From the NCBI GenBank assembly GCA_963722305.1, contig CAVRKE010000001.1:567549-608320 (forward strand): a DNA stretch of 40,772 nt, given 5' to 3'. This document shows, one piece after another, positions 1 to 40,772 of this stretch. A model generated the notes under the pieces. That model searched no databases. It saw only the letters and a program-made list of their open reading frames with translations, and was not told the origin of the DNA. This DNA comes from Candidatus Levyibacteriota bacterium. Its GTDB lineage: Bacteria; Patescibacteriota; Microgenomatia; Levybacterales; UBA12049. Positions within the stretch are counted from its first letter, which is position 1, and each line of letters begins with the position of its first letter. The position numbers and the translations under genes are program-made.

Positions 1-15
1 CCGGTTCATTCTAGC

Positions 16-1095
16 ATGAAGTATGGAAAAAAGTTTCTCTTACTGCCACTTTTATTTGTAGGCATAGTTCTACTATTTTTAGCCTTTGGCTATGCGTCTT
101 TTGCCCAAACCCCTCCTACGGCTTATGATGTGACAGTTTCTCCGGTCTTCTTTGATTTAACGCTTAAGCCGGGAGATACCATTAGCAACAAAGTAAGGAT
201 TAGAAATAACACCAACTCTCCCCTGCCGATTAAACTGAGTGTGCAGAAGATGACCGGAGATGCCAATGGAAACTTAACCTTAAGAGATGATCCCAGTGAT
301 CCTGCCTTATCTTGGATTAAATTCACCAACCAAAGCTTTGTGGCTGCTCCTTTGGAATGGAGCGATGTTCCCTTTACCATCACTGTTCCCTCCGATGCGG
401 CTTATGGTTATTACTTTGCCATTAACTTTACCCAGGATAATAACTCACCCCTCAAAAGAAGCGGTGCTGCCATTACCGGAGCGGCAGCAGTCCCTGTGCT
501 GTTGGATGTAACAAAAGCAGGGGCAAAATTGGATGGCAAACTGCTCAGTCTTACTACCGATAACAGCTTTTATGAATACCCTCCGGTTAAATTCTTCACT
601 GTTTTTGAAAACAGCGGCAATGTCCATATTAGACCGACCGGCAATATCTTTATTAAAGATGTCTTCGGAAATCAGGTAGCAGTCCTGACCGTCAATGACA
701 CTCAGTCAGCAATCATTCCGGGCCTTAAAAAGACCTTTACTTCCGTTTGGGATGATGGCTTCATCACTGTTGAACCAAAACTGCAAGTTGACGGAACACC
801 CATCCTGGATAAAAACGGCAAAGCGGAGACCCAGCTTAATTTCAAATTTGACAAAATTCTTGATTTGAGGATCGGCCGCTACACCGCTTCCGAATTAATG
901 GTTATCAGTACTGCCGACCGAGATATTCCTTTTACCGCCGAAACCAGCTTTTTTGTATTTCCGTGGAAAGTTGTCGGCGGAGTAATTCTGTTTATTATCT
1001 TTGCCGGAATTGGTTTCTATAGCACAATTAAAAATGCCCTAAAAAGAATCCTCAAAATATTTGGGTTCGGAGAGAAAAAAGAAAGTGAAACTTAA
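16..1095 (+). CDS. Secreted, C-terminally membrane-anchored beta-rich surface protein (DUF916/DUF3324-like), paralog 1
   Basis: Complete ORF from ATG 16. It has an N-terminal signal peptide (LLLPLLFVGIVLLFLAFGYASFAQ), the motif NSGNVHIRPTGNIFI, and a C-terminal TM helix plus basic tail (VVGGVILFIIFAGIGFY..KRILK). The architecture resembles the DUF916/DUF3324 proteins of Firmicute WxL/Csc loci. The family call is inference; no HMM was run. Confidence 0.75.
   Translation: MKYGKKFLLLPLLFVGIVLLFLAFGYASFAQTPPTAYDVTVSPVFFDLTLKPGDTISNKVRIRNNTNSPLPIKLSVQKMTGDANGNLTLRDDPSDPALSWIKFTNQSFVAAPLEWSDVPFTITVPSDAAYGYYFAINFTQDNNSPLKRSGAAITGAAAVPVLLDVTKAGAKLDGKLLSLTTDNSFYEYPPVKFFTVFENSGNVHIRPTGNIFIKDVFGNQVAVLTVNDTQSAIIPGLKKTFTSVWDDGFITVEPKLQVDGTPILDKNGKAETQLNFKFDKILDLRIGRYTASELMVISTADRDIPFTAETSFFVFPWKVVGGVILFIIFAGIGFYSTIKNALKRILKIFGFGEKKESET
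100..511. repeat. 412-bp direct repeat, copy 1 (identical to 1160-1571)
   Basis: Base-by-base comparison at an offset of 1060 nt. Identity starts at 100/1160 and ends at 511/1571. The shadow ORFs 123-383/1183-1443 and 287-511/1347-1571 in the track translate identically. Confidence 0.95.
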
Positions 1096-2128
1096 ACTAT
1101 CTACGACGCTATGTCTAAGCCTGCTTTTATTTTCTGGGGTTTTGACTTTAAGTAAAGCCTTTGCCCAAACCCCTCCTACGGCTTATGATGTGACAGTTTC
1201 TCCGGTCTTCTTTGATTTAACGCTTAAGCCGGGAGATACCATTAGCAACAAAGTAAGGATTAGAAATAACACCAACTCTCCCCTGCCGATTAAACTGAGT
1301 GTGCAGAAGATGACCGGAGATGCCAATGGAAACTTAACCTTAAGAGATGATCCCAGTGATCCTGCCTTATCTTGGATTAAATTCACCAACCAAAGCTTTG
1401 TGGCTGCTCCTTTGGAATGGAGCGATGTTCCCTTTACCATCACTGTTCCCTCCGATGCGGCTTATGGTTATTACTTTGCCATTAACTTTACCCAGGATAA
1501 TAACTCACCCCTCAAAAGAAGCGGTGCTGCCATTACCGGAGCGGCAGCAGTCCCTGTGCTGTTGGATGTAAGAAGAGAGGGAGCAAAAGCCGAGGCTAAA
1601 ATTCTTAATTTCAACGTTAACAATTATATCAACGAATATTTACCGGTAGACTTTTCGGTTAAAGTCCAGAGCCAGGGCAATATCCACGTTGCTCCATACG
1701 GAAACATTTTCATCGGTGCAGATAATCATCAATTGGCTTCATTAGAGGTTAACCCCGGGCAAGGTAATATCATCCCGGGAACCAATAAAACCTTTACCGC
1801 CAGTTGGGACGACGGATTTTTGGTCAAAGAAGGAGTTTTGGAAAACGGTCAGCCAAAATTGGATAAAAACGGCAAACCGGTCGAGAAAGTTACGATTAAT
1901 TGGAATGCAGTCACCAGTTTCCGCATCGGCAAATACACCGCTAACCTCTTACTTGTTTACGATAATGGCACCCGGGATATTCCCATGGAAGCAAAAATTG
2001 ACTTTTGGGTAATCCCGTATAAGCTCATCGGCTTTACTTTAGGAGCTTTAGTGGTAATTATCCTATTAGTGAGATTTTTGCTGAAATTCTACATTAACCG
2101 CGAAGTCCGAAAAAGGCTGCAGAAATAA
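1085..2128 (+). CDS. Secreted, C-terminally anchored surface protein (DUF916/DUF3324-like), paralog 2
   Basis: The track ORF 1061-2128 begins at TTG. An in-frame GTG at 1085 gives a normal signal peptide (VKLKLSTTLCLSLLLFSGVLTLSKAFAQ), so the start is uncertain between 1061 and 1085. The N-terminal domain is identical to paralog 1. The C-terminal half is diverged but homologous (SQGNIHVAPYGNIFI, TFTASWDDGF, RIGKYTA), followed by a TM helix plus basic tail. Confidence 0.75.
   Translation: MKLKLSTTLCLSLLLFSGVLTLSKAFAQTPPTAYDVTVSPVFFDLTLKPGDTISNKVRIRNNTNSPLPIKLSVQKMTGDANGNLTLRDDPSDPALSWIKFTNQSFVAAPLEWSDVPFTITVPSDAAYGYYFAINFTQDNNSPLKRSGAAITGAAAVPVLLDVRREGAKAEAKILNFNVNNYINEYLPVDFSVKVQSQGNIHVAPYGNIFIGADNHQLASLEVNPGQGNIIPGTNKTFTASWDDGFLVKEGVLENGQPKLDKNGKPVEKVTINWNAVTSFRIGKYTANLLLVYDNGTRDIPMEAKIDFWVIPYKLIGFTLGALVVIILLVRFLLKFYINREVRKRLQK
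1160..1571. repeat. 412-bp direct repeat, copy 2 (identical to 100-511)
   Basis: See copy 1. Confidence 0.95.
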
Positions 2129-2728: not shown

Positions 2729-2835
2729 AACTTTATGATAGCAGATTTACCCTGTTAAATCCGCAAAGCGGTGTGCAGCCCAGTCTGACTCGGCGCAGCA
2801 ATTTAACAGGGTTAACAACTAACGAATCATCTGGT

Positions 2836-3804
2836 ATGATTAACATGGAATTTAAAATACTACAAATGTCAAATACTACAAATAACAAAATATGGAAATA
2901 TTGGTACCTATTGGTAGTATTGGTAATATTGGTAGTATTTCCGGCGCGCGCCCATGCCCAAACCCAACCCGGCATCACCGTTATTCCTTCAATTATGCAT
3001 CTTGATCTTGCCACCGACCCAGCGGAATACACGCTCACCTACATTAACAACACCAGCGCCGATATTAATCTGTCGCTAAGCGTTCAGGATTTTACCGAAC
3101 TCGAAGACAGCTATAAAATCTCTTTTTTGAGCGGGCAAGACGCCGCCAACTATAAATATTCTCTATCTTCATGGATTTCGTTTGAAACTAAAAGCCTCGA
3201 GCTTAATCCGGGCGAAAAAAAGGGCATCAAAGTATTTATTGACAAAAACCGCATCACCAAAGGCGGGCATTACGCCAGCATCTTAGCTGAAATCGAACAA
3301 CCGACAGTTAAAGGCCAAGTCGCTGTTAAGGCTATCCTTTCGAGCCTGTTGTTTGTCAGGGCGTCTACCGGACAAGAGATTGAAGATGGTAAAATTGACA
3401 GTTTTGGGCCTTTAAGAGACGGCATCGATTACCCGGATACATATTTAGCCAGATTTGAAAATGACGGCAACGTCTTCGTTGCTCCGCACGGGCAAATTCG
3501 GGTTTTTGATCCGTTGGGAAATTTGGTCGCCAGAGGTGCTTTTAATGTCGACTCGCTTGATGCTCTTCCCGAAAGCATCAGGAACTATCAAACTACAGTG
3601 GTCACTTACCAAAAGATTCTCCTGCCGGGCATTTATACCGCTAAAATTGACTTAACTTTTGGCAAGACTCAGCAGAAGGCAACAGTTACCGTGAAGTTTT
3701 TCTCCCAAGGAATGTTTAATTTCGGCAAAATCGCAATTACTCTGGTTATAATTCTACTTGTTGGGCTCTATTTGCGCAAAAGACTGAAAACAAAAGCCTC
3801 CTAG
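2836..3804 (+). CDS. Secreted, C-terminally anchored surface protein (DUF916/DUF3324-like), paralog 3
   Basis: The track ORF 2773-3804 begins at GTG. In-frame ATGs lie at 2836, 2845 and 2866 before the hydrophobic signal (WYLLVVLVILVVFPARAHAQ), so the start is uncertain. Motifs KGGHYASILAE and NDGNVFVAPHGQIRVF are present, with a C-terminal TM helix plus RKRLKTK tail. Confidence 0.7.
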   Translation: MINMEFKILQMSNTTNNKIWKYWYLLVVLVILVVFPARAHAQTQPGITVIPSIMHLDLATDPAEYTLTYINNTSADINLSLSVQDFTELEDSYKISFLSGQDAANYKYSLSSWISFETKSLELNPGEKKGIKVFIDKNRITKGGHYASILAEIEQPTVKGQVAVKAILSSLLFVRASTGQEIEDGKIDSFGPLRDGIDYPDTYLARFENDGNVFVAPHGQIRVFDPLGNLVARGAFNVDSLDALPESIRNYQTTVVTYQKILLPGIYTAKIDLTFGKTQQKATVTVKFFSQGMFNFGKIAITLVIILLVGLYLRKRLKTKAS

Positions 3805-16707: not shown

Positions 16708-16766
16708 TGTTTATATTTTAATTGGTAAAAGCCATATTGTAAATAGATGAAATGAGAAAAACCTAT

Positions 16767-17582: not shown

Positions 17583-17627
17583 AGCGGTTAATGATAATGT
17601 AAAAAGGAGGTAAAGTCAAACTATAAG

Positions 17628-18902
17628 TCAAAATTTGAGAAGTTTCTCGAACTTTTGTCTATTGTCAAAATTGCCAATCACTGCTAAATTGAGACCGTTT
17701 TCTTTGAAATATTTTTGGGCGACGTTTTGCACATCTTCAACCGTGATTTTATCAACCTTGGCAATAATTTCCTCCGGAGTTTCGATTTTCTTCTCCAAAA
17801 TCTCCGCTTGGGCAAAATAGCCGGCGACCGAACGGCTGTCTTCCAACTCCAGCACGAAATGTCCTTTTAAATATTCCTTGGCCTTGTTAAGTTCGGCAGT
17901 AGTGATGCCGGACTTTGCACCGGCAATTTTGGCATATTCGCTAACGATAACCGCAATCCCCTCTTCTGCCCTTTTTGGGTCCAAACCGGCGGTGGAAACT
18001 AAGTTCCCCACGTCTTGATAGTGTTCCGAGCTGGTTCTGACGTAATAAGCCAGTCCCCGCTTCTCCCTAACCTCCGAAAATAAACGCGAACTCATGCCGC
18101 CGCCCAAAATCGCCGAAAGTACCGAAAGAGCGTGTTTTTCCTCGTTGTTGATTGGAACCGTCCTGAATCCAATGGCAATATGCACTTGTTCTGTTTTTTT
18201 CTGTTGTATAAAAAGAGCCGGTTTGAGCTGGTTTTCTGGTTGTTTCTCATAATTTAACGTATCGAAACGCTTCATTTGGCCGAAATAATTTTCGACTTTC
18301 TGTTCTATTTCGGCTGAGTCTATACCACCGGCGACAACGACGGTTAAATTGCTGGCGCTGTAAAGGCTTTGCAAGTAATCGACAAAATTTTGTCGGTTGA
18401 CGCTCTCGATGACCTCTTTGCTGCCGATAATTTCCCAACCAAGCGGTGTATCACCGTACAACAGAATTTCGTAAATGTCACCGATATGCCTACTCGGTGT
18501 ATCTTCATAAAGGTTTTTTTCTTCCAAAATGACGCCTTTTTCTTTGTCGATTTCGGATGAATCAAGTTTTGAGTTTTGCAGCATATCGGAAAGGACATCC
18601 AGGCACAAATCCACGTTGTTAGCAGCGGCTTTGACGTAAAATCCGGTCACTTCTTTGCTGGTAAAGGCATTGCACTCTCCACCAACGCCGTCGATTAAAG
18701 AAGCGATTTCCATGGCCGTCGGGCGCTTGTTGGTCCCCTTAAACGCCATGTGTTCCAAAAAATGGGAAATACCGTTATTCTTACGGGTTTCATATCTTGA
18801 GCCGGCACCAACCATCACCATGGCTGTGGCGCTTTCAAACGACGGCATCGGAACAGTAATTACTCTTAAACCGTTAGCGAGAACTTTTCTTTGATAATTC
18901 AT
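17628..18902 (-). CDS. M16-family zinc metallopeptidase (pitrilysin-like)
   Basis: It has the inverted zinc motif HFLEHMAFKGT (HxxEH) and a two-domain length of 424 aa. Confidence 0.88.
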   Translation of the reverse strand: MNYQRKVLANGLRVITVPMPSFESATAMVMVGAGSRYETRKNNGISHFLEHMAFKGTNKRPTAMEIASLIDGVGGECNAFTSKEVTGFYVKAAANNVDLCLDVLSDMLQNSKLDSSEIDKEKGVILEEKNLYEDTPSRHIGDIYEILLYGDTPLGWEIIGSKEVIESVNRQNFVDYLQSLYSASNLTVVVAGGIDSAEIEQKVENYFGQMKRFDTLNYEKQPENQLKPALFIQQKKTEQVHIAIGFRTVPINNEEKHALSVLSAILGGGMSSRLFSEVREKRGLAYYVRTSSEHYQDVGNLVSTAGLDPKRAEEGIAVIVSEYAKIAGAKSGITTAELNKAKEYLKGHFVLELEDSRSVAGYFAQAEILEKKIETPEEIIAKVDKITVEDVQNVAQKYFKENGLNLAVIGNFDNRQKFEKLLKF

Positions 18903-18943
18903 TGAGAACTATTATAACAAGTTGCAGAGGCTTTTGAAATAGA

Positions 18944-20647: not shown

Positions 20648-20770
20648 TTCATTCTCATTTTAGCATATTCGATTGAACATATTCCCTGCACTTGCAAAAA
20701 AGCTCCCAATATTCTAAGATACAACCTAACTAAATTTGCTATAATCATAGCTTAACCTGAATTAATCACT

Positions 20771-21499
20771 ATGCTATCCGTTCTTGCGTACAATATTCAC
20801 TTTGGCAAAAAATTGAAGCTGATTGAAAAATGGCTGTTAAAGCGGCCGACTAAGTTTGACATCATTTGCCTGCAAGAATTTCCTTTTAGTAAAGACTCTT
20901 CTTTTTTGCAGACTTTTCAAAAACAGGGTTACGGCTTTAAATTTGCCCCTTCGTCTTTTTTAACCAAACCGTTTTTGGGCAACAGCGACTTGTATGGCGA
21001 ACTAACCCTCTACAACAGCAAAAAAGTAAAATTAATAAACCACAAGGTGGCTAAGCTGGGCGCAAATTTTTTGGAGAAAAGATTTCGGGTGCAGGGCGAA
21101 AAAACTTCCCTGATGACACTTTTTAAGTACAAAAACAAAAAGATTGTCATGGCCAACTCCCAACTGGTTTGTTATACCCTTAACTCAAGGCGCATCAACC
21201 AAATTTCCAAAATAATCAAAAACGTCAAGGCGATGGGTAACCACCATTCCGGCTCCTCAACCGTAATTCTAGGCGATTTTAACTATACTTCCAGAATCAG
21301 GCAGAAAAAATTGATTGAATTTATGACTAAAAACGACCTATTAAATGCTTATACCACTAACACCCACAAATTTTTCTTTGTCACGCAGCAGCTGGATTAC
21401 GTTTTCTATAACGGTTGCGTAGTTAAAAATGCCACCGTCGGAAAAGTCAAATATTCCGACCATTTCCCCGTCTGGTTTGATATCGATTTTACGAAATAA
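20771..21499 (+). CDS. Endonuclease/exonuclease/phosphatase (EEP) family protein
   Basis: Contains IICLQEFPF, ILGDFNY and YSDHFPVWFDI, which are canonical EEP motifs. Confidence 0.8.
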   Translation: MLSVLAYNIHFGKKLKLIEKWLLKRPTKFDIICLQEFPFSKDSSFLQTFQKQGYGFKFAPSSFLTKPFLGNSDLYGELTLYNSKKVKLINHKVAKLGANFLEKRFRVQGEKTSLMTLFKYKNKKIVMANSQLVCYTLNSRRINQISKIIKNVKAMGNHHSGSSTVILGDFNYTSRIRQKKLIEFMTKNDLLNAYTTNTHKFFFVTQQLDYVFYNGCVVKNATVGKVKYSDHFPVWFDIDFTK

Positions 21500-30488: not shown

Positions 30489-31133
30489 ATGAAGTCTTTA
30501 CTGCAAGTCTCTCTTCTTGTTTTATCTTTTGTTTTAGTTTTCTTCTGGCGTTTTCTGCAGTTGAGTGACCTGACAGTCCCGGTGATTGGCGTTTTGGTTG
30601 CAGCATATTTGGTTTTGTCGTTAAGAAAACGGGGTAAAGGTTTTCTGACCATGGGCGGCGAAGGCCCGTGGGGCATTTTTATTTTGAATACTCTGATATT
30701 CCTGCTAATTTTTTCCACCGGCGGTTTTAATTCCCTACTTTACTTCCTGCTGTACTTTTTGGCCTTCGGCATCGCCTTTGTCTTTGCCCCTAGTATGGTT
30801 TTTGTCTTTGTTCTGGGCACGATTGTAATTTTTCTGCCCGATGCCCTGAAAACTGATCTTCTAAACAGCGGTTTAAAGCTTGGCTCACTACTGCTTTTAT
30901 CTCCCTTAGCTTACTTTTTTGGCGCGCAGTACCGCAAAACCGACCAGGAAGAGGAAAAAGTCGAAGCTTTGGAAGAAAGAACCAAGGAAGCCGCCGACAC
31001 TATTGCCGAGGATATTGAGGAAGTTGTCAAAGACGAGAAAGCCAACTTGAAAGGCCCAGATTTGGAAAAACTCAACGAGATTTTGGAAGAAACCGAAGAC
31101 CTCCGCGCCGAGAGCGCCAATAAAGATTTATGA
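30489..31133 (+). CDS. Polytopic membrane protein with acidic coiled-coil-like C-terminal tail
   Basis: 214-aa ORF with about 5 hydrophobic helices followed by an E/K/D-rich tail. There is no recognisable motif. Its stop codon lies inside the heptad array that also carries the next gene's start. Confidence 0.6.
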   Translation: MKSLLQVSLLVLSFVLVFFWRFLQLSDLTVPVIGVLVAAYLVLSLRKRGKGFLTMGGEGPWGIFILNTLIFLLIFSTGGFNSLLYFLLYFLAFGIAFVFAPSMVFVFVLGTIVIFLPDALKTDLLNSGLKLGSLLLLSPLAYFFGAQYRKTDQEEEKVEALEERTKEAADTIAEDIEEVVKDEKANLKGPDLEKLNEILEETEDLRAESANKDL

Positions 31134-31159
31134 TTTATGATTTATGATTTAAGATTTAA
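31125..31159. repeat. (GATTTAT)x3(GATTTAA)x2 heptanucleotide array across a stop/start junction
   Basis: Read directly from the sequence. It contains TGA at 31131, 31138 and 31145 and ATG at 31130, 31137 and 31144, so a stop and a start occur in every frame. Confidence 0.9.
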
Positions 31160-31913
31160 GAAAAAAGAGTTACTCACCCTCACAAAAACGAGAATTACCT
31201 ATTTCTTACTTCTTCTTTCTTACTTCTTCTTTGTTACTTCCGCGCCAACGGCGCTTGCCCAAACCATGAGTAATTCGCAGTACATTATCCAAATGGGTAA
31301 TTTGAACTCAATTGCCGGACACCCAACCGGCCCCAGCTACCAACTGTTGTATACCGTCGGCCAGACCAGCCCGGGGCTCTATTCCGGCCCCAATTATAAA
31401 GTTAAAGCCGGCTTTGAATACGTCCTTTCTAACATTCCTTTCCGATTTACGATTAGCAATATCTTTATTGATTTTGGCATTATCAGCCCAACCATTCCGG
31501 TATTAAGAACCAATACCCTAACTATTTCCAATGGCTCTGCTTATGGTTACCAGGTGACTGTTTCCGAAAACCGGAATTTGACCTCCGACGCTTACGGAAC
31601 ACAAATTCCGGCCACTACTTGTGACAGCGGAGATTGCACTCCGACAACCGCCGCGCTGTGGACCAGTTCCCTCACTTACGGCTTTGGTTACAGATGCGAC
31701 AACATATCGGCAACTGATTGTGACAGTCAATTTTCAACCGCTAATTATTACAAACCGTTTATTGCTTCACCGTCGGCCATAGTAATTATGAGCAGTCTGC
31801 AGGTTGGCCGAAATAAAGTCGGACAGGTCACTTACAAGGTTAACGTCTCGGGACTGCAACGCGCCGGCCTATATACCAATTTAATTAATTACATAGCAAC
31901 ACCGACTTTTTAA
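31137..31913 (+). CDS. Secreted beta-rich protein ending in YIATPTF (WxL-like C-terminus), module 1
   Basis: It has a signal peptide (ITYFLLLLSYFFFVTSAPTALAQ) and repeated SxYxL-type N-terminal motifs. The C-terminal AGLYTNLINYIATPTF parallels AGTYSTVFTYVATPTF of 34267-35712. The resemblance to Firmicute WxL domains is inference. Confidence 0.7.
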   Translation: MIYDLRFKKKELLTLTKTRITYFLLLLSYFFFVTSAPTALAQTMSNSQYIIQMGNLNSIAGHPTGPSYQLLYTVGQTSPGLYSGPNYKVKAGFEYVLSNIPFRFTISNIFIDFGIISPTIPVLRTNTLTISNGSAYGYQVTVSENRNLTSDAYGTQIPATTCDSGDCTPTTAALWTSSLTYGFGYRCDNISATDCDSQFSTANYYKPFIASPSAIVIMSSLQVGRNKVGQVTYKVNVSGLQRAGLYTNLINYIATPTF

Positions 31914-31916
31914 CTT

Positions 31917-32930
31917 ATGAAAACAATCATCAAAATTTTATTAATTTTCACAGTATGCAATTTATATCAATTGTTAGTTAACGTAAACATCGCTCAGGCC
32001 CAAACTGTGGATTTAGGTATTTATCCGCCGGTTTTCCAAATTCAGGCCACTCCGCCTGCCATCATTAAGGCGCCTTTTTTTATCCAAAATTATTCTGACT
32101 CGAGTATCAATTTGCTTATTTCCCTGATGCCATTTACCGCCGCAGGCACGGAAAACGGCACTGTTTCATTTTCCACCGACTTTAGCTCTTTTCCCGACCC
32201 GTCGCTGTTGCAGAAAATTTCCGTCGCAGATAACAACAATGCTCAAATCCAAACTCTCACTTTGGCTCCAAAACAAAAAAAGAACCTCAACTTAGACATT
32301 CAAATTCCCAATAACCAAAGCAAGGGCGATTATTACGTTTCACTTATTTTTACTTCAAGTAACCAAAATACCGTTAATAATAGTAACTTTTCCGCAGCCA
32401 CCGCCAGCATTGCCAGCAATATTCTTTTATCGGTCGGCCCGGTTGGGCAAACCAAAGGCTATATTGAGAATTTCTCCGCTCCGCCGCTTATGACTAGTGG
32501 CCCTGTTCCCTTTACGGTGAGCATTAAAAATACCAGCGACCATTATATTACCCCCCAGGGAGACATTGTGATTACCAATATGTTTGGCCAAAACATCGGC
32601 AAAGTCAACCTTCTTCCCGTAAATATCCTTTCCAATACGGTAAGAAGAATGCCCGACTCTATCCAGTCGGATCTCAATTCTAAAGATTACCAAACAGTGA
32701 AGGCTGTAGCGGACAGCAACCGGTATCCGGTGGCGGTCTGGCCGGAAAAACTGTTAGTCGGCCCTTATACGGCCACCCTAACCCTGGCTTTATCGACAAG
32801 TGGACCGCTTTTTCGGAAAACCGTCTTTTTCTTTGCCTTCCCGAGTGAATATTTACTCGGGATTTTGGCAATAATTATTATCATTACTTTTATAATTTTA
32901 AGGATCAAAAAGAAGTTTAGGCAATTTTGA
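31917..32930 (+). CDS. Secreted, C-terminally anchored surface protein (DUF916/DUF3324-like), paralog 4, module 1
   Basis: It has a signal peptide ending AQAQ and the motifs KGDYYVSLIF and NTSDHYITPQGDIVI, with a C-terminal TM helix plus RIKKKFRQF tail. It starts 3 nt after the preceding stop. Confidence 0.72.
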   Translation: MKTIIKILLIFTVCNLYQLLVNVNIAQAQTVDLGIYPPVFQIQATPPAIIKAPFFIQNYSDSSINLLISLMPFTAAGTENGTVSFSTDFSSFPDPSLLQKISVADNNNAQIQTLTLAPKQKKNLNLDIQIPNNQSKGDYYVSLIFTSSNQNTVNNSNFSAATASIASNILLSVGPVGQTKGYIENFSAPPLMTSGPVPFTVSIKNTSDHYITPQGDIVITNMFGQNIGKVNLLPVNILSNTVRRMPDSIQSDLNSKDYQTVKAVADSNRYPVAVWPEKLLVGPYTATLTLALSTSGPLFRKTVFFFAFPSEYLLGILAIIIIITFIILRIKKKFRQF

Positions 32931-32950
32931 GGCCAAAATCCAAATTGTTC

Positions 32951-34214
32951 GATAGCGTACCAAATTTCGTCTGCTTTTCAGTTACAAATTTAGGTAATCA
33001 ATTCCCCTAATGTTTACTCCCGCTAATTCCAGTGGCGCTTTCCCATTCTTTAATCTGTTCATATCACCTCTGCAATCGGTAAACTTGGTAAATCTTCTAG
33101 CCAATGCCCAGGTTTTTAAGTAATGCTCTGCATTTTCTTTGTTTCTGAACATATTCCAGCTTTTTAACCTCAAGCTTAGTTGCTTAAACAGGTTCTCAGC
33201 GTCATTGTTGTAGCTGGGAACAAAGTATTGATCGTGAAAGCGAAAATGGGTGGTCAGTAAAAACAGATGTTGATTTAAGCTTTGCATGATTAGTCTTTGG
33301 CAGCGGGTCTTCGCTAGTGTCTGAAGTACCTTTAATTGCTCTAAACACTCTTCCTCTTTTCTCATTGCCAGCGCTAACCAGACGTAACCAACCAGGTTTT
33401 CGGTTATCTTCCTCTCCTCCCGCTTTTCTTCCCTGGCGATTGTTTTAAGTGTTTCAATGAAATGCCTGACACAGAGCTGAACACCGATACTTGGACCGTA
33501 GATTCTCTGTGCTCCTGTCATTGTCTCCGGATTTCCGTCACAGACTAACACTTTTAAATCATAGCCAATATCATTTTTCAATGTTTTGAAGTACTCATAC
33601 AGATCGATTTTGGTTTCTCCCTCAGCCATTTGGTAATGGGGTAAATCTTTGGTCATCACATCCACACCCGCTAACCAGGTCTTTTTCAGAAGATATGATT
33701 TCTCATGACCGCTTCCTTGAAACCGCTCGGCTATTGGATCAAAGACACGAATGATTTTCCCATCCACCGAGAGTACATGTCCCCACTTAGGCTGAAAATG
33801 TTTGGCTATCCAGATACTGCCTTTTGTTTGTTTGGCAACCTCCAGAACGGCTAATGAAACTGTGGTTTTGGAGAGCCTCTTTCGTCTGGCAATGGTGCGA
33901 ATGCTGCTTCTGCCTTCCAAACTGTCACGGAAGACCTTCTTCTGAAGTGCTTGACCGATTATTCCTTTCCTGTGTTTAAAACTGAAGTATTTGTGGCAAT
34001 TAAGACAAACGAAACGCTGCTTCTGATACCGTTTTTCTTTTCCTACCCATCTGTTTCCAGCCCGTCTTGTTGAAAGTGATTGACAGATCGGACATCGTAT
34101 TTTTTTTCCTTATATTTCACCTCCTAGCTTCTGTTACCAGAGGATACTCAATCGATTATCTCAATATGATAATCCGAATACAACGATTTACCCCACTAAT
34201 ATTGGTACGCTATC
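32951..34214 (-). mobile_element. Insertion sequence (IS1-family-like), 1264 bp, with 13-bp perfect terminal inverted repeats and an 8-bp target duplication
   Basis: IRL is GATAGCGTACCAA (32951-32963) and IRR is TTGGTACGCTATC (34202-34214). The direct repeat AATTGTTC lies immediately outside both ends (32943-32950 and 34215-34222). The element encloses a single transposase frame. Confidence 0.85.
32982..33920 (-). CDS. DDE transposase (Zn-ribbon, HTH and DDE; IS1 InsA/InsB-like layout)
   Basis: The track ORF starts at TTG 33920. The same frame stays open to 34109 and there encodes CPICQS...(x17)...CLNCHKYF (Zn ribbon) and the HTH IRTIARRKRLSKTTV. Catalytic-like residues are VDGK, LVCDGNPE and NNDAENLFKQLSLRLK. 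No ATG, GTG or TTG occurs in that upstream extension. Confidence 0.75.
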   Translation of the reverse strand: MEGRSSIRTIARRKRLSKTTVSLAVLEVAKQTKGSIWIAKHFQPKWGHVLSVDGKIIRVFDPIAERFQGSGHEKSYLLKKTWLAGVDVMTKDLPHYQMAEGETKIDLYEYFKTLKNDIGYDLKVLVCDGNPETMTGAQRIYGPSIGVQLCVRHFIETLKTIAREEKREERKITENLVGYVWLALAMRKEEECLEQLKVLQTLAKTRCQRLIMQSLNQHLFLLTTHFRFHDQYFVPSYNNDAENLFKQLSLRLKSWNMFRNKENAEHYLKTWALARRFTKFTDCRGDMNRLKNGKAPLELAGVNIRGIDYLNL

Positions 34215-34226
34215 AATTGTTCCCTA

Positions 34227-34257
34227 TTGACAATGTGTGAAAAGTTATTCATATAAT
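34227..34257 (+). promoter_or_regulatory. Candidate sigma70-type promoter (TTGACA ... TATAAT) for 34267-35712
   Basis: TTGACA lies at 34227-34232 and TATAAT at 34252-34257, a 19-nt spacer that is longer than optimal. The ATG follows 9 nt after the -10 box, which would imply a leaderless or near-leaderless mRNA. No Shine-Dalgarno sequence is visible. Confidence 0.3.
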
Positions 34258-34266
34258 AGTATATAG

Positions 34267-35712
34267 ATGGAAGTTAACAAAAGAATTATCCTGTCCATGA
34301 TTGTCCTTCTATGGGGAGGATTATTTTTTGTCAAAGCCGCCCAGGCGGCTACCCTTACGGCAGTATCCGATTCTGTCTCCACTTCTCGACCTTCTGCCTC
34401 CGCTCCGCTGGCCGCAGACCAAGCAGCAGGAGCAGCTGGAACTTCGGTAGCAATTGTCGATAACGGCTCAACTTTCCTGGCTTCAGATTCGGCTGTGGTC
34501 ATGCCGGATCCAAACGGAGCTGAAACAATAGGCAATACTGTCTTAATTGCTTCAATGTCAGCCAGCGGAATTCCGTCGGCCGGCCAAAAAACTGTTTATT
34601 TCGGCGGACCTTGTGGAGGAAGCGGTTGTTTGTCACTTGCTCACCATAAGGGAGATGCCATAGTCACCCCTATTACTGCCGTACACATTATTAAATTTAC
34701 CACACTAACCCCAATTCCAACTAACGGATATATCACAATTACTTTTCCGGGTGCGGGAAACAATTCTGCTTCGCCATCCGCTACAACCTTTGCTTTTAAT
34801 AATTTGGCAGCAGCCGGAGTAACCTTTAGCGCCAGCACCCAGTGTCCAACCGGTCAAATCACAATCAATGCGCCAGTCATCCAGTGTAAAGTCACTTCTG
34901 GTCCACTAGCCGCTGGCACAATCACGGTGACAGTTGGTACTGTTCCGACAGTGATTAACCCGACTAAAACTTTAGCCGCCGGCAGCAGTGACCAATGGAA
35001 AATCGCCATCCAGACTACAGATGCCGGTGGCGCTCCGCTTGATTCCGGTGCTACGGCCATTGCTACGAACGAATCTGTCCAGGTCCAGGGCACGGTCCAA
35101 CCGTACATTACTTTTACCATCGCCGGCGTGCCAAACGGAACACTTGCCTGCACTTACGATACCACCAATCCGGGGGCAGGTAACGATTCAACCGCCACTT
35201 TTGTCAATCTCGGATATTTATCAAACACACAATATAACGTTTCTGCCCAAAACTTATTTGTTAGCACCAATGCCGGGTCTTACGTCATTACTGCCACCTC
35301 TTCCGGGAAGTTCTGGAATCCTAGCTCAGGCTATGTTATCCCCGATAATATTGTTAATGCCGGCCAAAATGGTTTGCAAGGCAACGACAGTCCGGTTCCT
35401 GCGCGTTTTAACGCTTATGGAGCGAATTACTCATACTTTGGCATTCATCCGTGTGCAGCCGGTACCTCATATCAACCAACAGTTGCTACCGGAACTTGGG
35501 GCACCGGTGGAGTGATTGGGTCGGCAAATGCCCTTTACTCAAATCCCTGGAACGCAGGCACGAATAGCTATTATGCAACCATTTCTAATTATTCTTTAGG
35601 TTCATCTTCATTGAGTCAAACAACCATTGAATATGCTGCTACAGCAGGAGCAATTGTACCGGCAGGAACCTATTCAACAGTTTTTACTTACGTCGCAACA
35701 CCGACATTTTAA
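34267..35712 (+). CDS. Secreted beta-rich surface protein ending in YVATPTF (WxL-like C-terminus), module 2
   Basis: It has a signal peptide (IILSMIVLLWGGLFFVKAAQAA) and a Thr/Ala/Gly/Ser-rich body, noticeably more GC-rich than its neighbours. The C-terminus is AGTYSTVFTYVATPTF. Confidence 0.75.
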   Translation: MEVNKRIILSMIVLLWGGLFFVKAAQAATLTAVSDSVSTSRPSASAPLAADQAAGAAGTSVAIVDNGSTFLASDSAVVMPDPNGAETIGNTVLIASMSASGIPSAGQKTVYFGGPCGGSGCLSLAHHKGDAIVTPITAVHIIKFTTLTPIPTNGYITITFPGAGNNSASPSATTFAFNNLAAAGVTFSASTQCPTGQITINAPVIQCKVTSGPLAAGTITVTVGTVPTVINPTKTLAAGSSDQWKIAIQTTDAGGAPLDSGATAIATNESVQVQGTVQPYITFTIAGVPNGTLACTYDTTNPGAGNDSTATFVNLGYLSNTQYNVSAQNLFVSTNAGSYVITATSSGKFWNPSSGYVIPDNIVNAGQNGLQGNDSPVPARFNAYGANYSYFGIHPCAAGTSYQPTVATGTWGTGGVIGSANALYSNPWNAGTNSYYATISNYSLGSSSLSQTTIEYAATAGAIVPAGTYSTVFTYVATPTF

Positions 35713-35715
35713 AAT

Positions 35716-36744
35716 ATGCATAAGCAACTGCCCAACCAAATAAATAAATACTACAAATGGCAAATTCTACAAATATCTAAATATCGAGTTATTGGTTTAT
35801 TGATAGTATTGGTATGTATTGGTAGTATTCTGGCCCAAGGGGCCAGAGCCCAAGAGCTACAAAGGTCATACACTGTCATTAATCCGCAAATTGAGGTTAA
35901 ATTAAACCCCGGAGCAAGATCCGAGGGAACAACCGAACTAATCAACGACACCGACGTGCCTTTAACCTTTAATTTGACTGTCAGGGATTATATTGTTACT
36001 GACACTATTGGAACACCCAGCTTTCTCCCTGCAGGCACCTTAAACAATAAATATTCTGCTGCTGCCTGGATAGCCATTTACCCCGACACCTTTACTTTAA
36101 ACCCGCATCAGGTACAAAAAGTCAATTATTACGTCCAGGTTCCGGCCAACGCCAGTCCCGGCGGCCATTATGCCGGAATTGTCTATGCTCCGGTCACTAC
36201 TCCCCAGAAAAAAACCGGTGGCGTAGTCAATACTCAAGTCGGCTCTTTGTTTTACATCACGGTTAACGGTCCGGTTACCGAGAACAGCCTTGTCTCCAAG
36301 TTTTTTGCCTCTCCATTCCAAGAGTACGGCCCGGTGAAAATCTTAACTGAAATTAAAAACCTGGGCGACCTCCATATTAATCCTAAAGCCACTATCACTG
36401 TTTCCGGATTTTTCTTCAATCAAAACCAAAATTTAGCCAGATATAATATTTTCCCCGAAACCGCCAGGGATTTTGAGAACAGTTTTGGCCAAACACTGAT
36501 GATTGGCAGATATCGAGCAGTTTTGATGGGCACCTACGGCCTCAACAACAACTTGCCTTTAGTTGCCACCGTTTATTTCTGGGTCTTCCCTTGGAAGATA
36601 GCCTTAGTAATTATACTCGTCATCGTCGCCCTGATATTGACTGCTCTCTACCTCAGGAAGAGAAAGAAAGCTAAGGCTGCTAAAGAGCCTCAGAAACCAG
36701 AAGCTACACCAACTGCTCCACTGATTAAAGAAGAAACAAAATAG
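35716..36744 (+). CDS. Secreted, C-terminally anchored surface protein (DUF916/DUF3324-like), paralog 5, module 2
   Basis: It has a signal/anchor (VIGLLIVLVCIGSILAQGARAQ) and the motifs SPGGHYAGIVYAP and NLGDLHINPKATITV, with a TM helix plus RKRKKAKAAKE tail. It starts 3 nt after the preceding stop. Confidence 0.75.
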   Translation: MHKQLPNQINKYYKWQILQISKYRVIGLLIVLVCIGSILAQGARAQELQRSYTVINPQIEVKLNPGARSEGTTELINDTDVPLTFNLTVRDYIVTDTIGTPSFLPAGTLNNKYSAAAWIAIYPDTFTLNPHQVQKVNYYVQVPANASPGGHYAGIVYAPVTTPQKKTGGVVNTQVGSLFYITVNGPVTENSLVSKFFASPFQEYGPVKILTEIKNLGDLHINPKATITVSGFFFNQNQNLARYNIFPETARDFENSFGQTLMIGRYRAVLMGTYGLNNNLPLVATVYFWVFPWKIALVIILVIVALILTALYLRKRKKAKAAKEPQKPEATPTAPLIKEETK

Positions 36745-36866: not shown

Positions 36867-36950
36867 GAGAATTGAGAATTGAGAATTGAGAATTGAGAAT
36901 TGAGAATTGAGAATTGAGAATTGAGAATTGAGAATTGAGAATTGAGAATT
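36867..36950. repeat. Perfect (GAGAATT)x12 heptanucleotide microsatellite
   Basis: Counted directly: 84 nt. It lies between convergent genes and ends 3 nt from the stop codon of 36954-37793. Confidence 0.97.
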
Positions 36951-36953
36951 CTT

Positions 36954-37793
36954 TTAGTATCCCATCCACCATTTGTGATGCAAGGGGCGTTTTTTCTCGA
37001 ACGGATGGAAACCAATCAGCTTTATTAACAGTATAATAATGAGGATAATCAGCGGTATTAAAAGCCAAAGCGGCCCGAGCGCCAAATTGGTTAGGAATTT
37101 GAGTAATTTGTCCCAGAGGTTTTTAAGAAAAGCCAGAAACTGATCCCACCAGGAAAGTGACTTCAGCTTAAGCTTCTTTGTTGGCTCCAGCGATTGCTTA
37201 TGATTAAGCTCTGCTCTGGTATATAAGCTGTAATTGCCTGCTTTCAAATCTTTAATCGTAAACTCATAGTAACCAGTGGGGTCTGCCGTGGTTGTAAGCA
37301 CAGTTCCGTTACTTAAGTAAAGGCTAACCAGTGCCCCAGGCATGGAATAACCAAACGCTTTGGCGCTTGAGCCCTCGTTGATTTCGGTTCGTGAAAGGCC
37401 CAGCGTTGGCGGAAGAAAGATATCCTTCATGGTTACCGAAGCCTGGGCCGGCGGAATGTTAAAACAGGTATAGGACTCCCCCAGTCTTTCAAAATCAATG
37501 GCATCCAGACAAAAACTGGAAAAGCCTCTTTTAATTAAGACGTCTGTAATATAAAAGTCTCCATTTCCGTCGGCAACCGTCGCCCGGGCAAAAATTCCAT
37601 CAATGGTTAAAACAATTGAGGCATTAGGAGCAATGTATCCGGAAAGATTAAGGTAAAACTCCCCAACCGAGGCCTCAACCTGAGTAGGCAGAGCAGCCGT
37701 TGGCAAACGGGTAATTTGCGAAAAAACAGGACCAGATAAACTAAAAACCAGTATGAGTGTTGATAATAAAAATATGGGCAGTATCTTCTTCAT
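36954..37793 (-). CDS. Secreted protein with two Ig-like/carboxypeptidase-regulatory-like domains and a C-terminal TM anchor
   Basis: It has a signal peptide (ILPIFLLSTLILVFSLSGPVFSQ). The motifs ADGNGDFYITDV and TADPTGYYEFTIKDLKAGNYSLY are typical of such beta-sandwich domains. A hydrophobic helix lies near the C-terminus. Confidence 0.7.
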   Translation of the reverse strand: MKKILPIFLLSTLILVFSLSGPVFSQITRLPTAALPTQVEASVGEFYLNLSGYIAPNASIVLTIDGIFARATVADGNGDFYITDVLIKRGFSSFCLDAIDFERLGESYTCFNIPPAQASVTMKDIFLPPTLGLSRTEINEGSSAKAFGYSMPGALVSLYLSNGTVLTTTADPTGYYEFTIKDLKAGNYSLYTRAELNHKQSLEPTKKLKLKSLSWWDQFLAFLKNLWDKLLKFLTNLALGPLWLLIPLIILIIILLIKLIGFHPFEKKRPLHHKWWMGY

Positions 37794-38401: not shown

Positions 38402-40772
38402 ATGAATTTATTAAGCCAATTTAAAGATTATTTATTTTCACAGGATAATAAGGCAGCAAATGTCACTGTGAAAAATTATTTATCTGATATTAACCACTTC
38501 ATCCGCTGGTTTGAGACAACTTACCATAAAACTTTTCCTTCCAGGGAGATAACCGCACAAACAATTAATGCCTATAAGTCTAATTTATCCGAGACTTTCT
38601 CTGCCAGTTCTTTAAATAGGCACCTTTCTTCATTACGCAAGTTCTTTGGTTTTTTGAAACTTGAAGGCATAATTGCACACTCGCCTTTTGAACAACTGAC
38701 TGCAAATAACCAAAAAACTGAAGCTGACCCATGGCATCTTCGAGATTTTAAAAACCACCTTTACGTTTACAACGCCTCGCACTTAACCATTAAGAATTAT
38801 TTAATTGATATTAGGCAGTTTCTCTCTTGGGCCGAAGAAGTAACCGGAGCAAAAAACGCTTTCGCCACTCAAAATGCAAATGTATTAAACAACATTAACT
38901 CACAGCTAATTGAAGAGTACAAACGAAGACTCTTAACCCAAAGTAATTTTTCTCCGGCAACTATTAACCGAAAACTGTCATCGCTTCGCAGGTATCTTGC
39001 CTGGGCGCTCGCAGAGAGCCTGATCCCTAGCTTTAGTCTTACCACCAACAACGTCGAAGAACAAAAAGCCGCGCTGAATATCCCCCAGTCTGTGAAAACA
39101 CCATCCATTGAGGCTAAGCAAACAGCGTATGTGTATTCACACTTTCCGCCGATTCGACTATTTCAAAAGGTATCAAACTCTACTCTGTTTATGCTTGACC
39201 AGGCCTTAGTTAACCCACTGGCCAGTCTACTTCAAAAAACCGACTATGCGTTTTGGAAAATTAAAGGCCAACCTGTTTTTAAAAAAGTAAAAGCGCTTAG
39301 GATCCCAAGAGCGATTAGTGCGGAAGATATTTTAGGGATTAAAAACCTTCCGAAAGAACTTTACGCTCCACTGGAAGTTTCAACCAAATACTTTCCCTGG
39401 TACAAAAAAGCCTGGTTTACTCTTCGCTATAATCGACCAAAATGGTACAAAACATATCATTCATATCCAATCACCCATTACTTTCATTTTGCTATCCTTA
39501 TTATCTTCTTAACGGCGCTCAGTTTTGGCTTCTATAATGCCTTTTTCGAAAAAGGCAATCAGGCTCCAACTCTAGCGGCTGGTGGAACTCCCACCGCTCC
39601 GCCCAGAATATTATCTTTTCAGGGAAGACTAACCGACAATAACGATAACCCAATCACTACACCCACGGCTTTACGTTTTAGCATTTACGACGCTCAGGCG
39701 CCAGCGTCAAGCTCTGCAGATCTTCTCTGGCAGGAAGAGGACCTGGTCAGTCCGGATCAAGACGGAATCTTCTCAATTTTATTGGGTAATACCTTAACTC
39801 CCTGCGCAAACGCCCTAGTTCCGGCAACCGGGGCTTGTCAAATTCCCCAGGCTTTATTTGCCACCGAGTCTGCCCTGTTTCTAGGCGTTAGCGTCGGCAA
39901 CACCGCCGAGTTAACCCCAAGGCAACAGGTAGCCACCGTGGCTTACGCCACCAATTCGGAGCTATTGCAGGGAATGGCACCGACCACCCAAGCCGGACTA
40001 ACCGCTTATACCAATACTGTTTTGGCGCTTGATTCAACCGCCAGCTCACCCACTTTGACCATCGGCGGCAGCGTGGGTACGACTTTTCAGGCCACCGGCG
40101 GACAATTTCAACTGTTAGGAAAAAGCATGTTGATTGGTACAACCACCGGTTCAGGCGGAAACGTTGTTCTTGCTCCTGACGGTTTAGGCCAGATCGACTT
40201 GCAAAAACCATTAATAAATAGCACAAACAATAACAATATCTCGACAGCCGTGGGCGCCGTTGAAGTTGATGACTTACTGGCTGTCCTTGCTACCTCAAGT
40301 GGACAATCAGCCTTAACTATCAATCAAAACAGCACAGGTCCGCTCATTAGCGCTTCCACCAGTGGAATTGCTAAATTTACGGTTGACAGTGCCGGAAACT
40401 TAACCGCTGCCGGAACCGGTTTATTCTCCGGAAATTTAACAACCGGTGGCAATCTTATCCTCTCCAATAGCGCCAGCACAATTACTTTGGGCGGAATAGC
40501 CTACGCATGGCCAGTCAGCGGACAATCAAGCGGATACGTATTATCAACCAATGGTTCGGGAACTTTAAATTGGGTAGCGCAAACCGGCGGCGGATTTAAC
40601 TTCTGGACAGAACAAACCGGAGCACTCTCACCTATTCATACAAGTGACGACCTGTTGCTTGGTACAGACTCAACCTACTCTACCGCTTCCGCCGCATTTG
40701 CCTTTACCGGTCTAATGAACAATATTGCCTCGGGAAACCATCAGACCCAGGCCTCCTTTAGTGGACAATTTG
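38402..40772 (+). CDS. Giant surface protein, 5' partial (runs off the window): two integrase SAM-like core-binding repeats, a TM helix, and extracellular tail-fibre-like repeats
   Basis: It is absent from the ORF track because there is no stop in the window. I translated it by hand from ATG 38402 to 40772 (790 codons) and found no stop. N-terminal repeats are VTVKNYLSDINHFIRWF...LNRHLSSLRKFFGFL and LTIKNYLIDIRQFLSWA...INRKLSSLRRYLAWA. The TM helix is ITHYFHFAILIIFLTALSFGFY. Downstream come ILSFQGRLTD...LWQEE...DGIFSILLG and LGGIAYAWPVSGQSSGYVLSTNGSGTLNW. Confidence 0.8.
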   Translation, partial: MNLLSQFKDYLFSQDNKAANVTVKNYLSDINHFIRWFETTYHKTFPSREITAQTINAYKSNLSETFSASSLNRHLSSLRKFFGFLKLEGIIAHSPFEQLTANNQKTEADPWHLRDFKNHLYVYNASHLTIKNYLIDIRQFLSWAEEVTGAKNAFATQNANVLNNINSQLIEEYKRRLLTQSNFSPATINRKLSSLRRYLAWALAESLIPSFSLTTNNVEEQKAALNIPQSVKTPSIEAKQTAYVYSHFPPIRLFQKVSNSTLFMLDQALVNPLASLLQKTDYAFWKIKGQPVFKKVKALRIPRAISAEDILGIKNLPKELYAPLEVSTKYFPWYKKAWFTLRYNRPKWYKTYHSYPITHYFHFAILIIFLTALSFGFYNAFFEKGNQAPTLAAGGTPTAPPRILSFQGRLTDNNDNPITTPTALRFSIYDAQAPASSSADLLWQEEDLVSPDQDGIFSILLGNTLTPCANALVPATGACQIPQALFATESALFLGVSVGNTAELTPRQQVATVAYATNSELLQGMAPTTQAGLTAYTNTVLALDSTASSPTLTIGGSVGTTFQATGGQFQLLGKSMLIGTTTGSGGNVVLAPDGLGQIDLQKPLINSTNNNNISTAVGAVEVDDLLAVLATSSGQSALTINQNSTGPLISASTSGIAKFTVDSAGNLTAAGTGLFSGNLTTGGNLILSNSASTITLGGIAYAWPVSGQSSGYVLSTNGSGTLNWVAQTGGGFNFWTEQTGALSPIHTSDDLLLGTDSTYSTASAAFAFTGLMNNIASGNHQTQASFSGQF

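Follow-up and report, generated by a model that had tools for sequence, protein, structure and literature searches.

A conserved Levyibacteriota operon probably encoding a distant Pam-type pilus, with anchored partners related to DUF916/WxLIP

Based on predicted proteins, family profiles, structural models and gene order, we describe a surface-protein cassette in a 40,772-nt stretch of the genome of a Candidatus Levyibacteriota bacterium (assembly GCA_963722305.1, contig CAVRKE010000001.1, positions 567,549 to 608,320 of the forward strand; the whole stretch is hereafter called the window). The cassette consists, in this order, of the genes for a membrane protein, a small secreted subunit, a first membrane-anchored partner (partner 1), a large secreted subunit and a second anchored partner (partner 2). 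We propose, with a probability of roughly 0.7, that the region is a single conserved operon of the Levyibacteriota (Microgenomates, Candidate Phyla Radiation, CPR) and that it encodes a distant Pam-type pilus, i.e. an usher-less, Sec-dependent filament formed by donor-strand exchange. Two filaments of this kind have been solved in the CPR parasite Ca. Mycosynbacter amalyticus (2026 bioRxiv preprint, 10.64898/2026.03.03.709456). An earlier reading of the same DNA (the original prediction) had seen in it a possible WxL/Csc-type cell-surface complex outside the Firmicutes.

Gene order and conservation of the cassette

The first cassette gene (30489..31133, + strand, like the four that follow) encodes a polytopic membrane protein of 214 aa with an acidic C-terminal helical tail; no Pfam or NCBIfam family matched this protein, and its homologue occupies the same position of the cassette in all 31 related loci. 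The small subunit (31137..31913; 258 aa, ending in NYIATPTF) is PamT-like, and partner 1 (31917..32930; 337 aa) carries a DUF916/WxLIP_PGBD domain. The large subunit (34267..35712; 481 aa, ending in TYVATPTF) is the candidate major pilin and is followed by partner 2 (35716..36744; 342 aa), a paralogue of partner 1. Both partner genes begin 3 nt past the stop codon of their subunit gene, and the terminal motif of the subunits is carried by only two open reading frames (ORFs) in the window (31137-31913 and 34267-35712). Signal peptides were judged by inspection of the translations and from the N-terminal helices in AlphaFold2 (AF2) models; by this inspection all cassette subunits and partners have Sec signal peptides, the N-terminal hydrophobic segment being followed in all four proteins by an AxA-type site (ALA/QT, AQA/QT, AQA/AT and ARA/QE, the slash marking the site). 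These four ORFs with their 3-nt spacings, signal peptides and ATPTF termini, as well as the partner motifs, transmembrane (TM) helices and Lys/Arg tails described below, had all been reported in the original prediction and were reproduced here.

Conservation was counted over 31 related Levyibacteriota/Patescibacteria loci, gathered partly by a genome scan with a 31-sequence partner alignment. Their gene order is leucyl-tRNA synthetase (LeuRS, minus strand), a membrane protein of ~211 aa, small subunit, partner, large subunit, partner, an immunoglobulin (Ig)-like anchored protein (minus strand) and a giant protein headed by Phage_int_SAM domains. The pair of small subunit and partner, beside LeuRS, is kept in 31 of these 31 loci, and a partner lies 3' of the large subunit in 21 of the 24 loci with a long enough contig. 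A second large-subunit gene is found in three loci (L014, L027 and L031) and three large-subunit genes in a fourth (L025), with one partner each; L023 is without the second partner, and L026 and L028 are without the second module. The pairing of subunit and partner, which had been expected to persist in related genomes, is thus conserved, but it is not strictly 1:1.

The window had been described as holding the same two-gene unit twice. Both units are indeed present, but they are halves of one operon rather than independent duplicates: in most related loci a distance of 8-140 nt separates the two modules, whereas it is 1,336 nt in the window, where an insertion sequence (IS) of ~1.26 kb stands between them, and we therefore regard the arrangement as one interrupted operon. 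The IS-like element (32951..34214, minus strand) is bounded by 20-nt terminal inverted repeats (32951-32970 and 34195-34214) and contains a transposase-like ORF (32982-33920, minus strand) with weak matches to IS256/IS66 transposases; a public contig starts exactly at its left edge, 32951. Its insertion between partner 1 and the large subunit probably has a polar effect on the distal operon half. Gaps are also seen in two relatives, of 2.1 kb at the same junction in L013 and of 1.1 kb between small subunit and partner 1 in L024.

The homologue clusters of the three protein types number 351, 648 and 374. Named homologues come from metagenome-assembled genomes of 'Candidatus Levybacteria' or 'Patescibacteria group', which NCBI taxonomy places in the Microgenomates group, and the 28 GTDB loci with the cassette belong to Levybacteria/Levyibacteriota/Patescibacteria. 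Twelve of the GTDB cassette records (L011, L012, L014-L017, L019, L021 and L025-L028), all third-party annotation (TPA) assemblies, are titled 'uncultured Gammaproteobacteria bacterium'. These titles look like mislabels, gene content and similarity being those of Levyibacteriota/Patescibacteria. In one of these records (L015, 6912-9083) the partner-1 ORF extends over 723 aa and has a pilin-type terminus (...AITYLAIPTF), which may reflect either a natural partner-subunit fusion or a frameshift or assembly error. Promoter and terminator scans were not used, terminator-like sites occurring at chance level and promoter-like matches being inflated by an AT-rich heptamer repeat.

Anchored partners and secreted subunits

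Five anchored proteins are encoded in the window, namely the two partners and three further paralogues at 16-3804. They align over their full length at 22-28 % identity (28 % between partners 1 and 2), share the motifs GDYY/GGHY and N.[GS][DN].[HF][IV].P.G.I in a five-way alignment, and all end in a hydrophobic C-terminal segment and a basic tail, which is of Lys/Arg in both cassette partners. When a profile is made solely of homologues of partner 1 from outside the window, it finds each of the remaining four (E 1e-12 to 1e-20; partner 2 at 1.7e-15), which confirms the paralogues proposed at 16-3804.

DUF916/WxLIP proteins have so far been studied in enterococci, listeriae and lactobacilli, and their role, in binding to peptidoglycan or to the host, is debated. 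The corresponding Pfam family, PF06030 (DUF916, now WxLIP_PGBD), has a gathering score of 27.3 bits, which three of the five anchored proteins of the window exceed; partner 1 scores 31.3 bits (E 2.4e-7), and partner 2, at 19.5 bits (E 0.001), remains below it. Within the partner family PF06030 matches 56 of 57 members (best E 8.6e-11) and is the only family found consistently in Pfam. A profile of this family matches the whole first domain of the Enterococcus faecium WxLIP1 crystal structure (9i25_C, 9i1y_A) at E 2e-5, and a profile of the five paralogues matches the same structure at E 6e-4. The suggestion that the anchored partners are DUF916-like is therefore upheld: judged by their sequences, they are genuine DUF916/WxLIP_PGBD homologues outside the Firmicutes. 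This does not extend to DUF3324, the second domain that had been suggested, which is absent among the 16 Pfam families reported for the 57 partner-family members (E ≤ 0.1); a beta-sandwich sits where it would be in the AF2 model of partner 1.

This model (predicted local distance difference test, pLDDT, 90.7; predicted TM-score, pTM, 0.80) comprises two beta-sandwiches, at residues 33-173 (the DUF916/WxLIP_PGBD domain) and 181-307, followed by a TM helix at 310-336. A long hairpin of the first domain is formed by strands 137-147, which include GDYY, and 164-173, and the low-confidence loop between them (148-163) is the only weak spot of the model. In a Foldseek search of the PDB, partner 1 matched WxLIP (9i1y/9i25) at E 4-6e-11 with TM-scores of ~0.35/0.45, and the chaperones CsuC, CfaA, Caf1M, YadV, FimC, DraB and SafB of chaperone-usher systems between E 1e-8 and 1e-6, the TM-scores normalised to the target being 0.43-0.55. 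The modelled resemblance to these chaperones is at the level of the fold only: with Pfam PapD_N and PapD_C, a single one of the 57 partner-family members matched PapD_N, at E 0.048.

The two secreted proteins appear alike by BLASTP only across their last 43 residues. When families are compared, however, small and large subunits share a C-terminal domain of ~150 aa (HHalign probability 96.6 %, E 4.8e-10, 148 columns; hmmsearch E 4e-9). In relatives the small subunit ends in the conserved motif Y[IV]A.P[TS][FY] and the large one in YVAT[AP].F, the last residue being always aromatic. Pfam gave no family for either secreted subunit of the window. In NCBIfam, the small subunit matched NF058579 ('CPR-type pilus protein PamT') at E 1.3e-9 over aa 23-146 (37.8 bits, with a cut-off of 240 bits) and NF058581 (Pam_pilin_C) at E 3.3e-7, aa 110-258 aligning with positions 5-148 of the 148 of the model (30.5 bits, with a cut-off of 55 bits). 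The same two models recur across the families, where matches are known by E-value and not by bit score: NF058581 matches 57 of 57 small-subunit homologues (best E 7.8e-10) and 47 of 53 large-subunit homologues (best E 1.7e-10), and NF058579 matches 56 of the 57 small ones. Only Pam models were matched in NCBIfam across the subunit families. A WxL identity of the subunits, as had been supposed, was rejected on four counts: Pfam WxL matched none of the 57 small- and none of the 53 large-subunit family members (110 in all) at E ≤ 10, the dual Trp-x-Leu motif is absent from the window subunits by inspection of their translations, PDB searches with the single subunit sequences and with subunit profiles gave only noise and neither Pam nor WxL chains, and no WxL chain is found among the 50 fold matches listed for the small subunit. 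The proposal of a WxL/Csc-type complex falls with it, the subunit families carrying the C-terminal domain of CPR Pam pilins instead.

For the small subunit, AF2 gave a model (pLDDT 77) with a confident C-terminal Ig-like domain at aa ~100-258, and its best fold matches in the PDB, which are weak (E 2e-3 to 5e-2), are chaperone-usher pilins (CfaB, CfaE, CS20, CsuE, PapE, the pilin domain of PapG, and FimG). In the model, YIATPTF forms an edge strand that belongs to the sandwich of the subunit itself, and the ATPTF strand is therefore more likely to pair with a donated strand than to be donated itself. The idea that this strand docks into the partner in a donor-strand-like manner is thus retained for the mode, which has been described for WxLIP-WxL and for Pam pairs, but the roles are probably reversed, ATPTF being the likelier acceptor. 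Residues 41-97 are among the most conserved of the small-subunit family, yet they are modelled at pLDDT <50, a combination typical of segments that become ordered only upon complex formation. Four cysteines are invariant in this family. The large subunit consists of a signal peptide, an N-terminal region (~28-265), a conserved segment (VQVQGTVQPYITFTIAG, aa ~268-287) and, just C-terminal of that segment, the pilin domain, mapped by HHalign to aa 308-481 and ending in YVATPTF. The conserved segment is, from its sequence and position, a candidate donor or linker strand.

Neighbouring genes, a truncated third module and repeats

Downstream of partner 2, the gene for an Ig-like anchored protein (36954..37793, minus strand; 279 aa) is convergent with the cassette and holds the same position in 23 of the 23 loci with a long enough contig. 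Its product has a signal peptide, a CarboxypepD_reg/Big-like domain (E 2.9e-8), a C-terminal TM helix and a conserved ...HH.W..GY tail, and it is a candidate anchor or terminator. A giant surface protein follows, of which the 5' part (38402..40772, + strand) lies in the window before the gene runs off its edge; two Phage_int_SAM domains (PF02899, E 3.4e-20), which are cytoplasmic, are succeeded by a TM helix and a Gly/Thr/Ser-rich, fibre-like region. Both genes had been recognized in the original prediction and are confirmed. Homologues of the giant protein, syntenic in most loci, reach 2,837 aa in L003 and 3,672 aa in L002. In the latter (15898-21020) the gene is directly preceded by a bAvd-like gene, which codes for an accessory protein of diversity-generating retroelements, and this hints that the giant surface protein may be a target of such elements in some relatives.

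The three further anchored paralogues lie at the left edge of the window. Paralogue 1 (16..1095, + strand; 359 aa) has a signal peptide, a DUF916 domain, a second beta domain and a C-terminal TM helix (PF06030 27.6 bits; profile E 1.3e-19). Paralogue 2 (1061..2128, + strand; 355 aa from a TTG, its start being uncertain) scores 27.7 bits with PF06030 (profile E 1.7e-20), and paralogue 3 (2773..3804, + strand; 343 aa from a GTG) is recovered by the profile at E 3.4e-12 and has no Pfam match alone. Since paralogue 3 is called as 322 aa in a public contig (L032), its start is probably near 2836. Just 1 nt before paralogue 1 stands the end of a subunit-like gene (G-S-F-TAG, its last three codons and stop; 3..14, + strand), the body of which lies beyond the window edge. 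In a metagenome relative (L033), a subunit-like ORF ending in ...DYTDTLTVTAAGSF is located 3 nt 5' of the paralogue-1 homologue; this upstream fragment has no NCBIfam match. These two observations at sequence level identify a third subunit-partner module, truncated by the left edge of the window. A block of 412 nt is 100 % identical between paralogues 1 and 2 (1160-1571 = 100-511) and encodes their first domains, while its flanks are unrelated at the ungapped offset; either the tandem paralogues have recently undergone gene conversion or the assembly is at fault here. Between paralogues 2 and 3, a gene at 2129-2728 (minus strand) encodes a protein of 199 aa that has a membrane anchor at its N-terminus and matches no family; the arrangement recurs in L035.

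Genes for a DsbA-like thioredoxin (PF13462, E 4e-31) and VKOR (E 4e-23) are adjacent at 14847-16026 and, from their family matches, would form an extracytoplasmic disulfide-forming pair relevant to cysteine-containing pilus subunits. Heptamer microsatellites seem unusually frequent in this genome. A tandem repeat of AAGATTT/ATGATTT (31123..31161, + strand; ~5.6 copies) spans the stop codon of the membrane protein and the ATG of the small subunit, and provides ATGs at 31130, 31137 and 31144 in three frames, of which only 31137 opens an ORF. As judged from its sequence, this repeat is a candidate slipped-strand phase switch, in which the gain or loss of one unit would turn translation off. A perfect (GAGAATT)x12 array occupies 36867-36950, in the intergenic stretch on which the genes for partner 2 and the Ig-like anchored protein converge, and more heptamer arrays lie inside the genes for arginyl-tRNA synthetase (19232-19264) and LeuRS (28011-28040). 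The LeuRS gene (27379-30357, minus strand) also contains three in-frame repeat copies of 69-132 nt (27631-27762, 28669-28800 and 29488-29556; 87-89 % identical), which add peptides of the form ...PLSSKRAPF.PLAS.PHSQSSE[MI]RA..SPSS... and of which there is no further copy in the window. In relatives the length of LeuRS ranges between 751 and 1,109 aa, and the repeats could represent an in-frame insertion element that is mobile, or else an expansion segment.

A probable Pam-type pilus, its alternatives and its relatives

In the Pam operon, PamA and PamB are two-domain pilins, the linker strand and the groove being most conserved, PamT is a single-domain tip subunit and PamE is a further pilin; PamC and PamD are PapD/FimC-like chaperones with a C-terminal TM helix, PamR is an RbmA-like, TM-anchored terminator, and there is no usher (10.64898/2026.03.03.709456). 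The pilins have paired cysteines, chaperone-pilin pairs are described with strand complementation, a tail-fibre-like neighbour is noted, and distant homologues are reported in Microgenomatia (10.64898/2026.03.03.709456). By analogy, each subunit of the cassette, once exported by Sec, would be bound at the membrane by the anchored partner cognate to it. The long hairpin of the first domain of this partner (strands 137-147 and 164-173, with GDYY) would insert alongside the C-terminal Y-[IV]-A-T-P-T-F strand of the subunit and so complete its putatively incomplete Ig fold. The small, PamT-like subunit would then begin the fibre, at its tip, and copies of the large subunit would polymerise, their own conserved linker strand (aa ~268-287) taking the place of the chaperone strand. 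Either an anchored partner or the Ig-like anchored protein encoded nearby would keep the fibre attached to the cytoplasmic membrane. What we infer in this scheme, beyond the observed domain homology, folds, architecture and synteny, are strand donation by the partner hairpin, polymerisation through the large-subunit segment and the tip role of the small subunit.

Several features of the region agree with a pilus. The variable number of large subunits per partner favours a polymerising pilin over a fixed heterodimer, since extra large-subunit copies without a partner of their own (L014, L025, L027 and L031) are to be expected of pilin paralogues. The DsbA-like/VKOR pair and the four invariant cysteines of the small subunit fit an extracellular fibre, and the fibre-like giant protein that adjoins the cassette recalls the tail-fibre-like neighbour of the preprint. 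Other observations weigh against this interpretation. Both Pam matches of the small subunit are below the NCBIfam curated cut-offs, its fold matches are weak (E 2e-3 to 8e-2, TM-scores 0.2-0.5), and the large subunit of the window has no NCBIfam Pam match on its own. None of the 57 partners matches a Pam-named NCBIfam model, of which the library may simply hold none for such proteins, and partners were set beside PamC, PamD and PamR by their published description and not by sequence. Neither ATP synthase nor CorB genes were seen among the ORFs examined, so that the neighbourhood is unlike that of the M. amalyticus pam locus. Finally, the pilus is predicted from genes, no filament having been observed in this lineage. 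That RbmA, the fold described for PamR, gives the best Foldseek E-value of partner 1 also belongs here: one or more of the modelled partners could therefore be anchors rather than chaperones.

Among the alternatives, the one that survives best is display without polymerisation, as in WxL/WxLIP systems, in which each DUF916 partner would permanently hold one subunit by strand complementation and the products would be heterodimeric adhesin complexes. In its favour, the partners are true homologues of DUF916 and have the layout of WxLIP (signal peptide, two Ig domains, TM helix), their genes follow those of the subunits at the tight spacing of 3 nt, and in WxLIP the WxL sandwich is predicted to be completed by a strand of a disordered hairpin (PMC10599100), to which the low-confidence loop of partner 1 is equivalent. 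However, neither subunit family has a WxL domain or the dual WxL motif, DUF3324 was not detected in the partners, and the subunits carry the Pam pilin domain, the small-subunit model resembling polymerising chaperone-usher pilins. Moreover, the subunit:partner ratio varies (up to three large-subunit genes per partner, none in one locus), and from its sequence the large subunit appears to be laid out in two parts with a conserved segment between the domains, as a self-polymerising pilin would be. We therefore consider simple display unlikely.

Still less probable, and a variant within the pilus model rather than a departure from it, is that some or all anchored partners are PamR/RbmA-like tethers, acting as terminators or anchors, with chaperoning absent or performed by one paralogue. 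The match of partner 1 to RbmA, a Vibrio cholerae biofilm scaffold (PDB 4kkp, E 3.6e-11), is what speaks for such tethers, as do the description of PamR as RbmA-like, with two domains and a TM helix at the C-terminus (10.64898/2026.03.03.709456) and the five paralogues of the window, which exceed the need of two chaperones. Yet RbmA superposes poorly on partner 1 (TM-scores 0.25/0.35, root-mean-square deviation, rmsd, ~15 Å), whereas the chaperone-usher chaperones and WxLIP do so better (TM-scores 0.33-0.37/0.45-0.55, rmsd 7.5-9.5 Å), and the position of one partner directly 3' of each subunit class fits cognate chaperones. RbmA shares with the partners the tandem fibronectin type III/Ig-like domains, but it is secreted without a TM anchor and there is no sequence-level match. 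That the proteins are unrelated Ig-fold envelope proteins (e.g. S-layer or wall-associated proteins), alike only through the ubiquity of beta-sandwiches, is very improbable: such sandwiches do yield many nonspecific Foldseek matches (partner 1 also retrieved ciliary proteins, CEP192 and protein 4.2), subunit fold matches are weak and all Pam scores are sub-threshold, but the sequence matches are family-wide and specific (only Pam in NCBIfam, only PF06030 consistently in Pfam), the top structural matches concentrate in exactly the two partner classes of donor-strand systems, and gene order is strictly conserved.

Returning to the proposed Pam-type pilus, the partners link it to two other groups of systems. 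WxLIP proteins have two perpendicular Ig-like domains and a TM helix, and in AlphaFold complexes the disordered DUF916 hairpin becomes a strand that fills the gap of the WxL sandwich (PMC10599100), which by analogy would be donor-strand complementation in all but name. Partners resemble them in the homology of the first domain (PF06030), in the succession of signal peptide, two Ig-like domains and TM helix, in a long, poorly ordered hairpin and in the location of the gene beside that of a secreted client. WxL clusters are defined by at least two WxL-domain proteins within four genes of a WxLIP gene (PMC10599100). In contrast to such clusters, the clients here have no WxL domain or dual motif of Trp-x-Leu and look like polymerising pilins, the second partner domain has no DUF3324 match, the cassette is without a small-WxL/large-WxL pair or an LPXTG CscD-like protein, and the lineage is CPR rather than Firmicutes.

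The second group is that of chaperone-usher pili, especially the archaic Csu and alternate CFA/I types. In its model the partner resembles CsuC, CfaA, Caf1M, FimC and SafB in fold, and the C-terminal domain of the small subunit has its best, albeit weak, matches in CfaB, CsuE, PapE and FimG. The C-terminal motif of the subunits (Gly-x-Tyr, alternating hydrophobics and a terminal aromatic residue) resembles the C-terminal F-strand motif of chaperone-usher pilins. Unlike these systems, the partner is tethered by a TM helix instead of being a soluble periplasmic chaperone and has no PapD_N/PapD_C family match, and the proposed donor strand is, as in Pam, an inter-domain linker and not an N-terminal extension. 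No usher family match was found among the cassette ORFs or the neighbours scanned, and CPR cells have, to our knowledge, no outer membrane.

These comparisons invite a broader and more tentative idea, which we think possible but rather doubtful: DUF916/WxLIP proteins and the anchored chaperone-like proteins of CPR Pam-type systems would be one family of membrane-tethered, strand-donating chaperones or anchors, and WxL/Csc clusters and Pam-type pili would be two branches of a single chaperone-subunit system, ancient and usher-less, of bacteria that lack an outer membrane, distantly related in fold to the chaperone-usher machinery. If true, this idea recasts WxL loci as chaperone-client, possibly fibre-forming, systems and predicts that PamC and PamD of M. 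amalyticus belong to PF06030. Should the DUF916 link hold for PamC and PamD, strand-donating tethered chaperones would provide a mechanistic frame for WxL virulence and adhesion loci, and donor-strand systems may predate or span the monoderm/diderm divide.

The closest relative of the cassette is nevertheless the Pam system itself. Both occur in CPR lineages and combine Sec-signal subunits bearing a pilin domain, here a putative truncated Ig, that matches Pam_pilin_C, of which one is small and PamT-like and the other larger, with an extra N-terminal region; in both, the same operon encodes two-Ig-domain helpers with a C-terminal TM helix and, by AF2 and Foldseek, a fold like that of chaperone-usher chaperones, and conserved cysteines, the lack of an usher and a fibre-like giant neighbour are further common traits. 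The differences are that the similarity is remote, with scores below the NCBIfam cut-offs and a large subunit undetectable alone in the window, and that the layout ends here in a convergent Ig-like anchor and stands beside LeuRS/ComEC, not ATP synthase/CorB. The helpers described here are, in addition, demonstrable DUF916 members, whereas the main text of the preprint is without mention of DUF916, DUF3324, WxL or Pfam (10.64898/2026.03.03.709456). The sequences thus suggest a connection of the anchored helpers of a Pam-type operon with the DUF916/WxLIP family of the Firmicutes, which is the modestly new point of this analysis. Structures of Pam pili are so far available for a single cultured parasite related to the Saccharimonadia. 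CPR bacteria are considered to live in attachment to host cells, by means that are largely unknown. Most likely, the system is to be placed among the recently described Pam pili of the CPR and not among Csc complexes, as a remote and differently organised version, syntenically fixed in the Levyibacteriota-type genomes examined, that gives gene sets for work on attachment in the Microgenomates.

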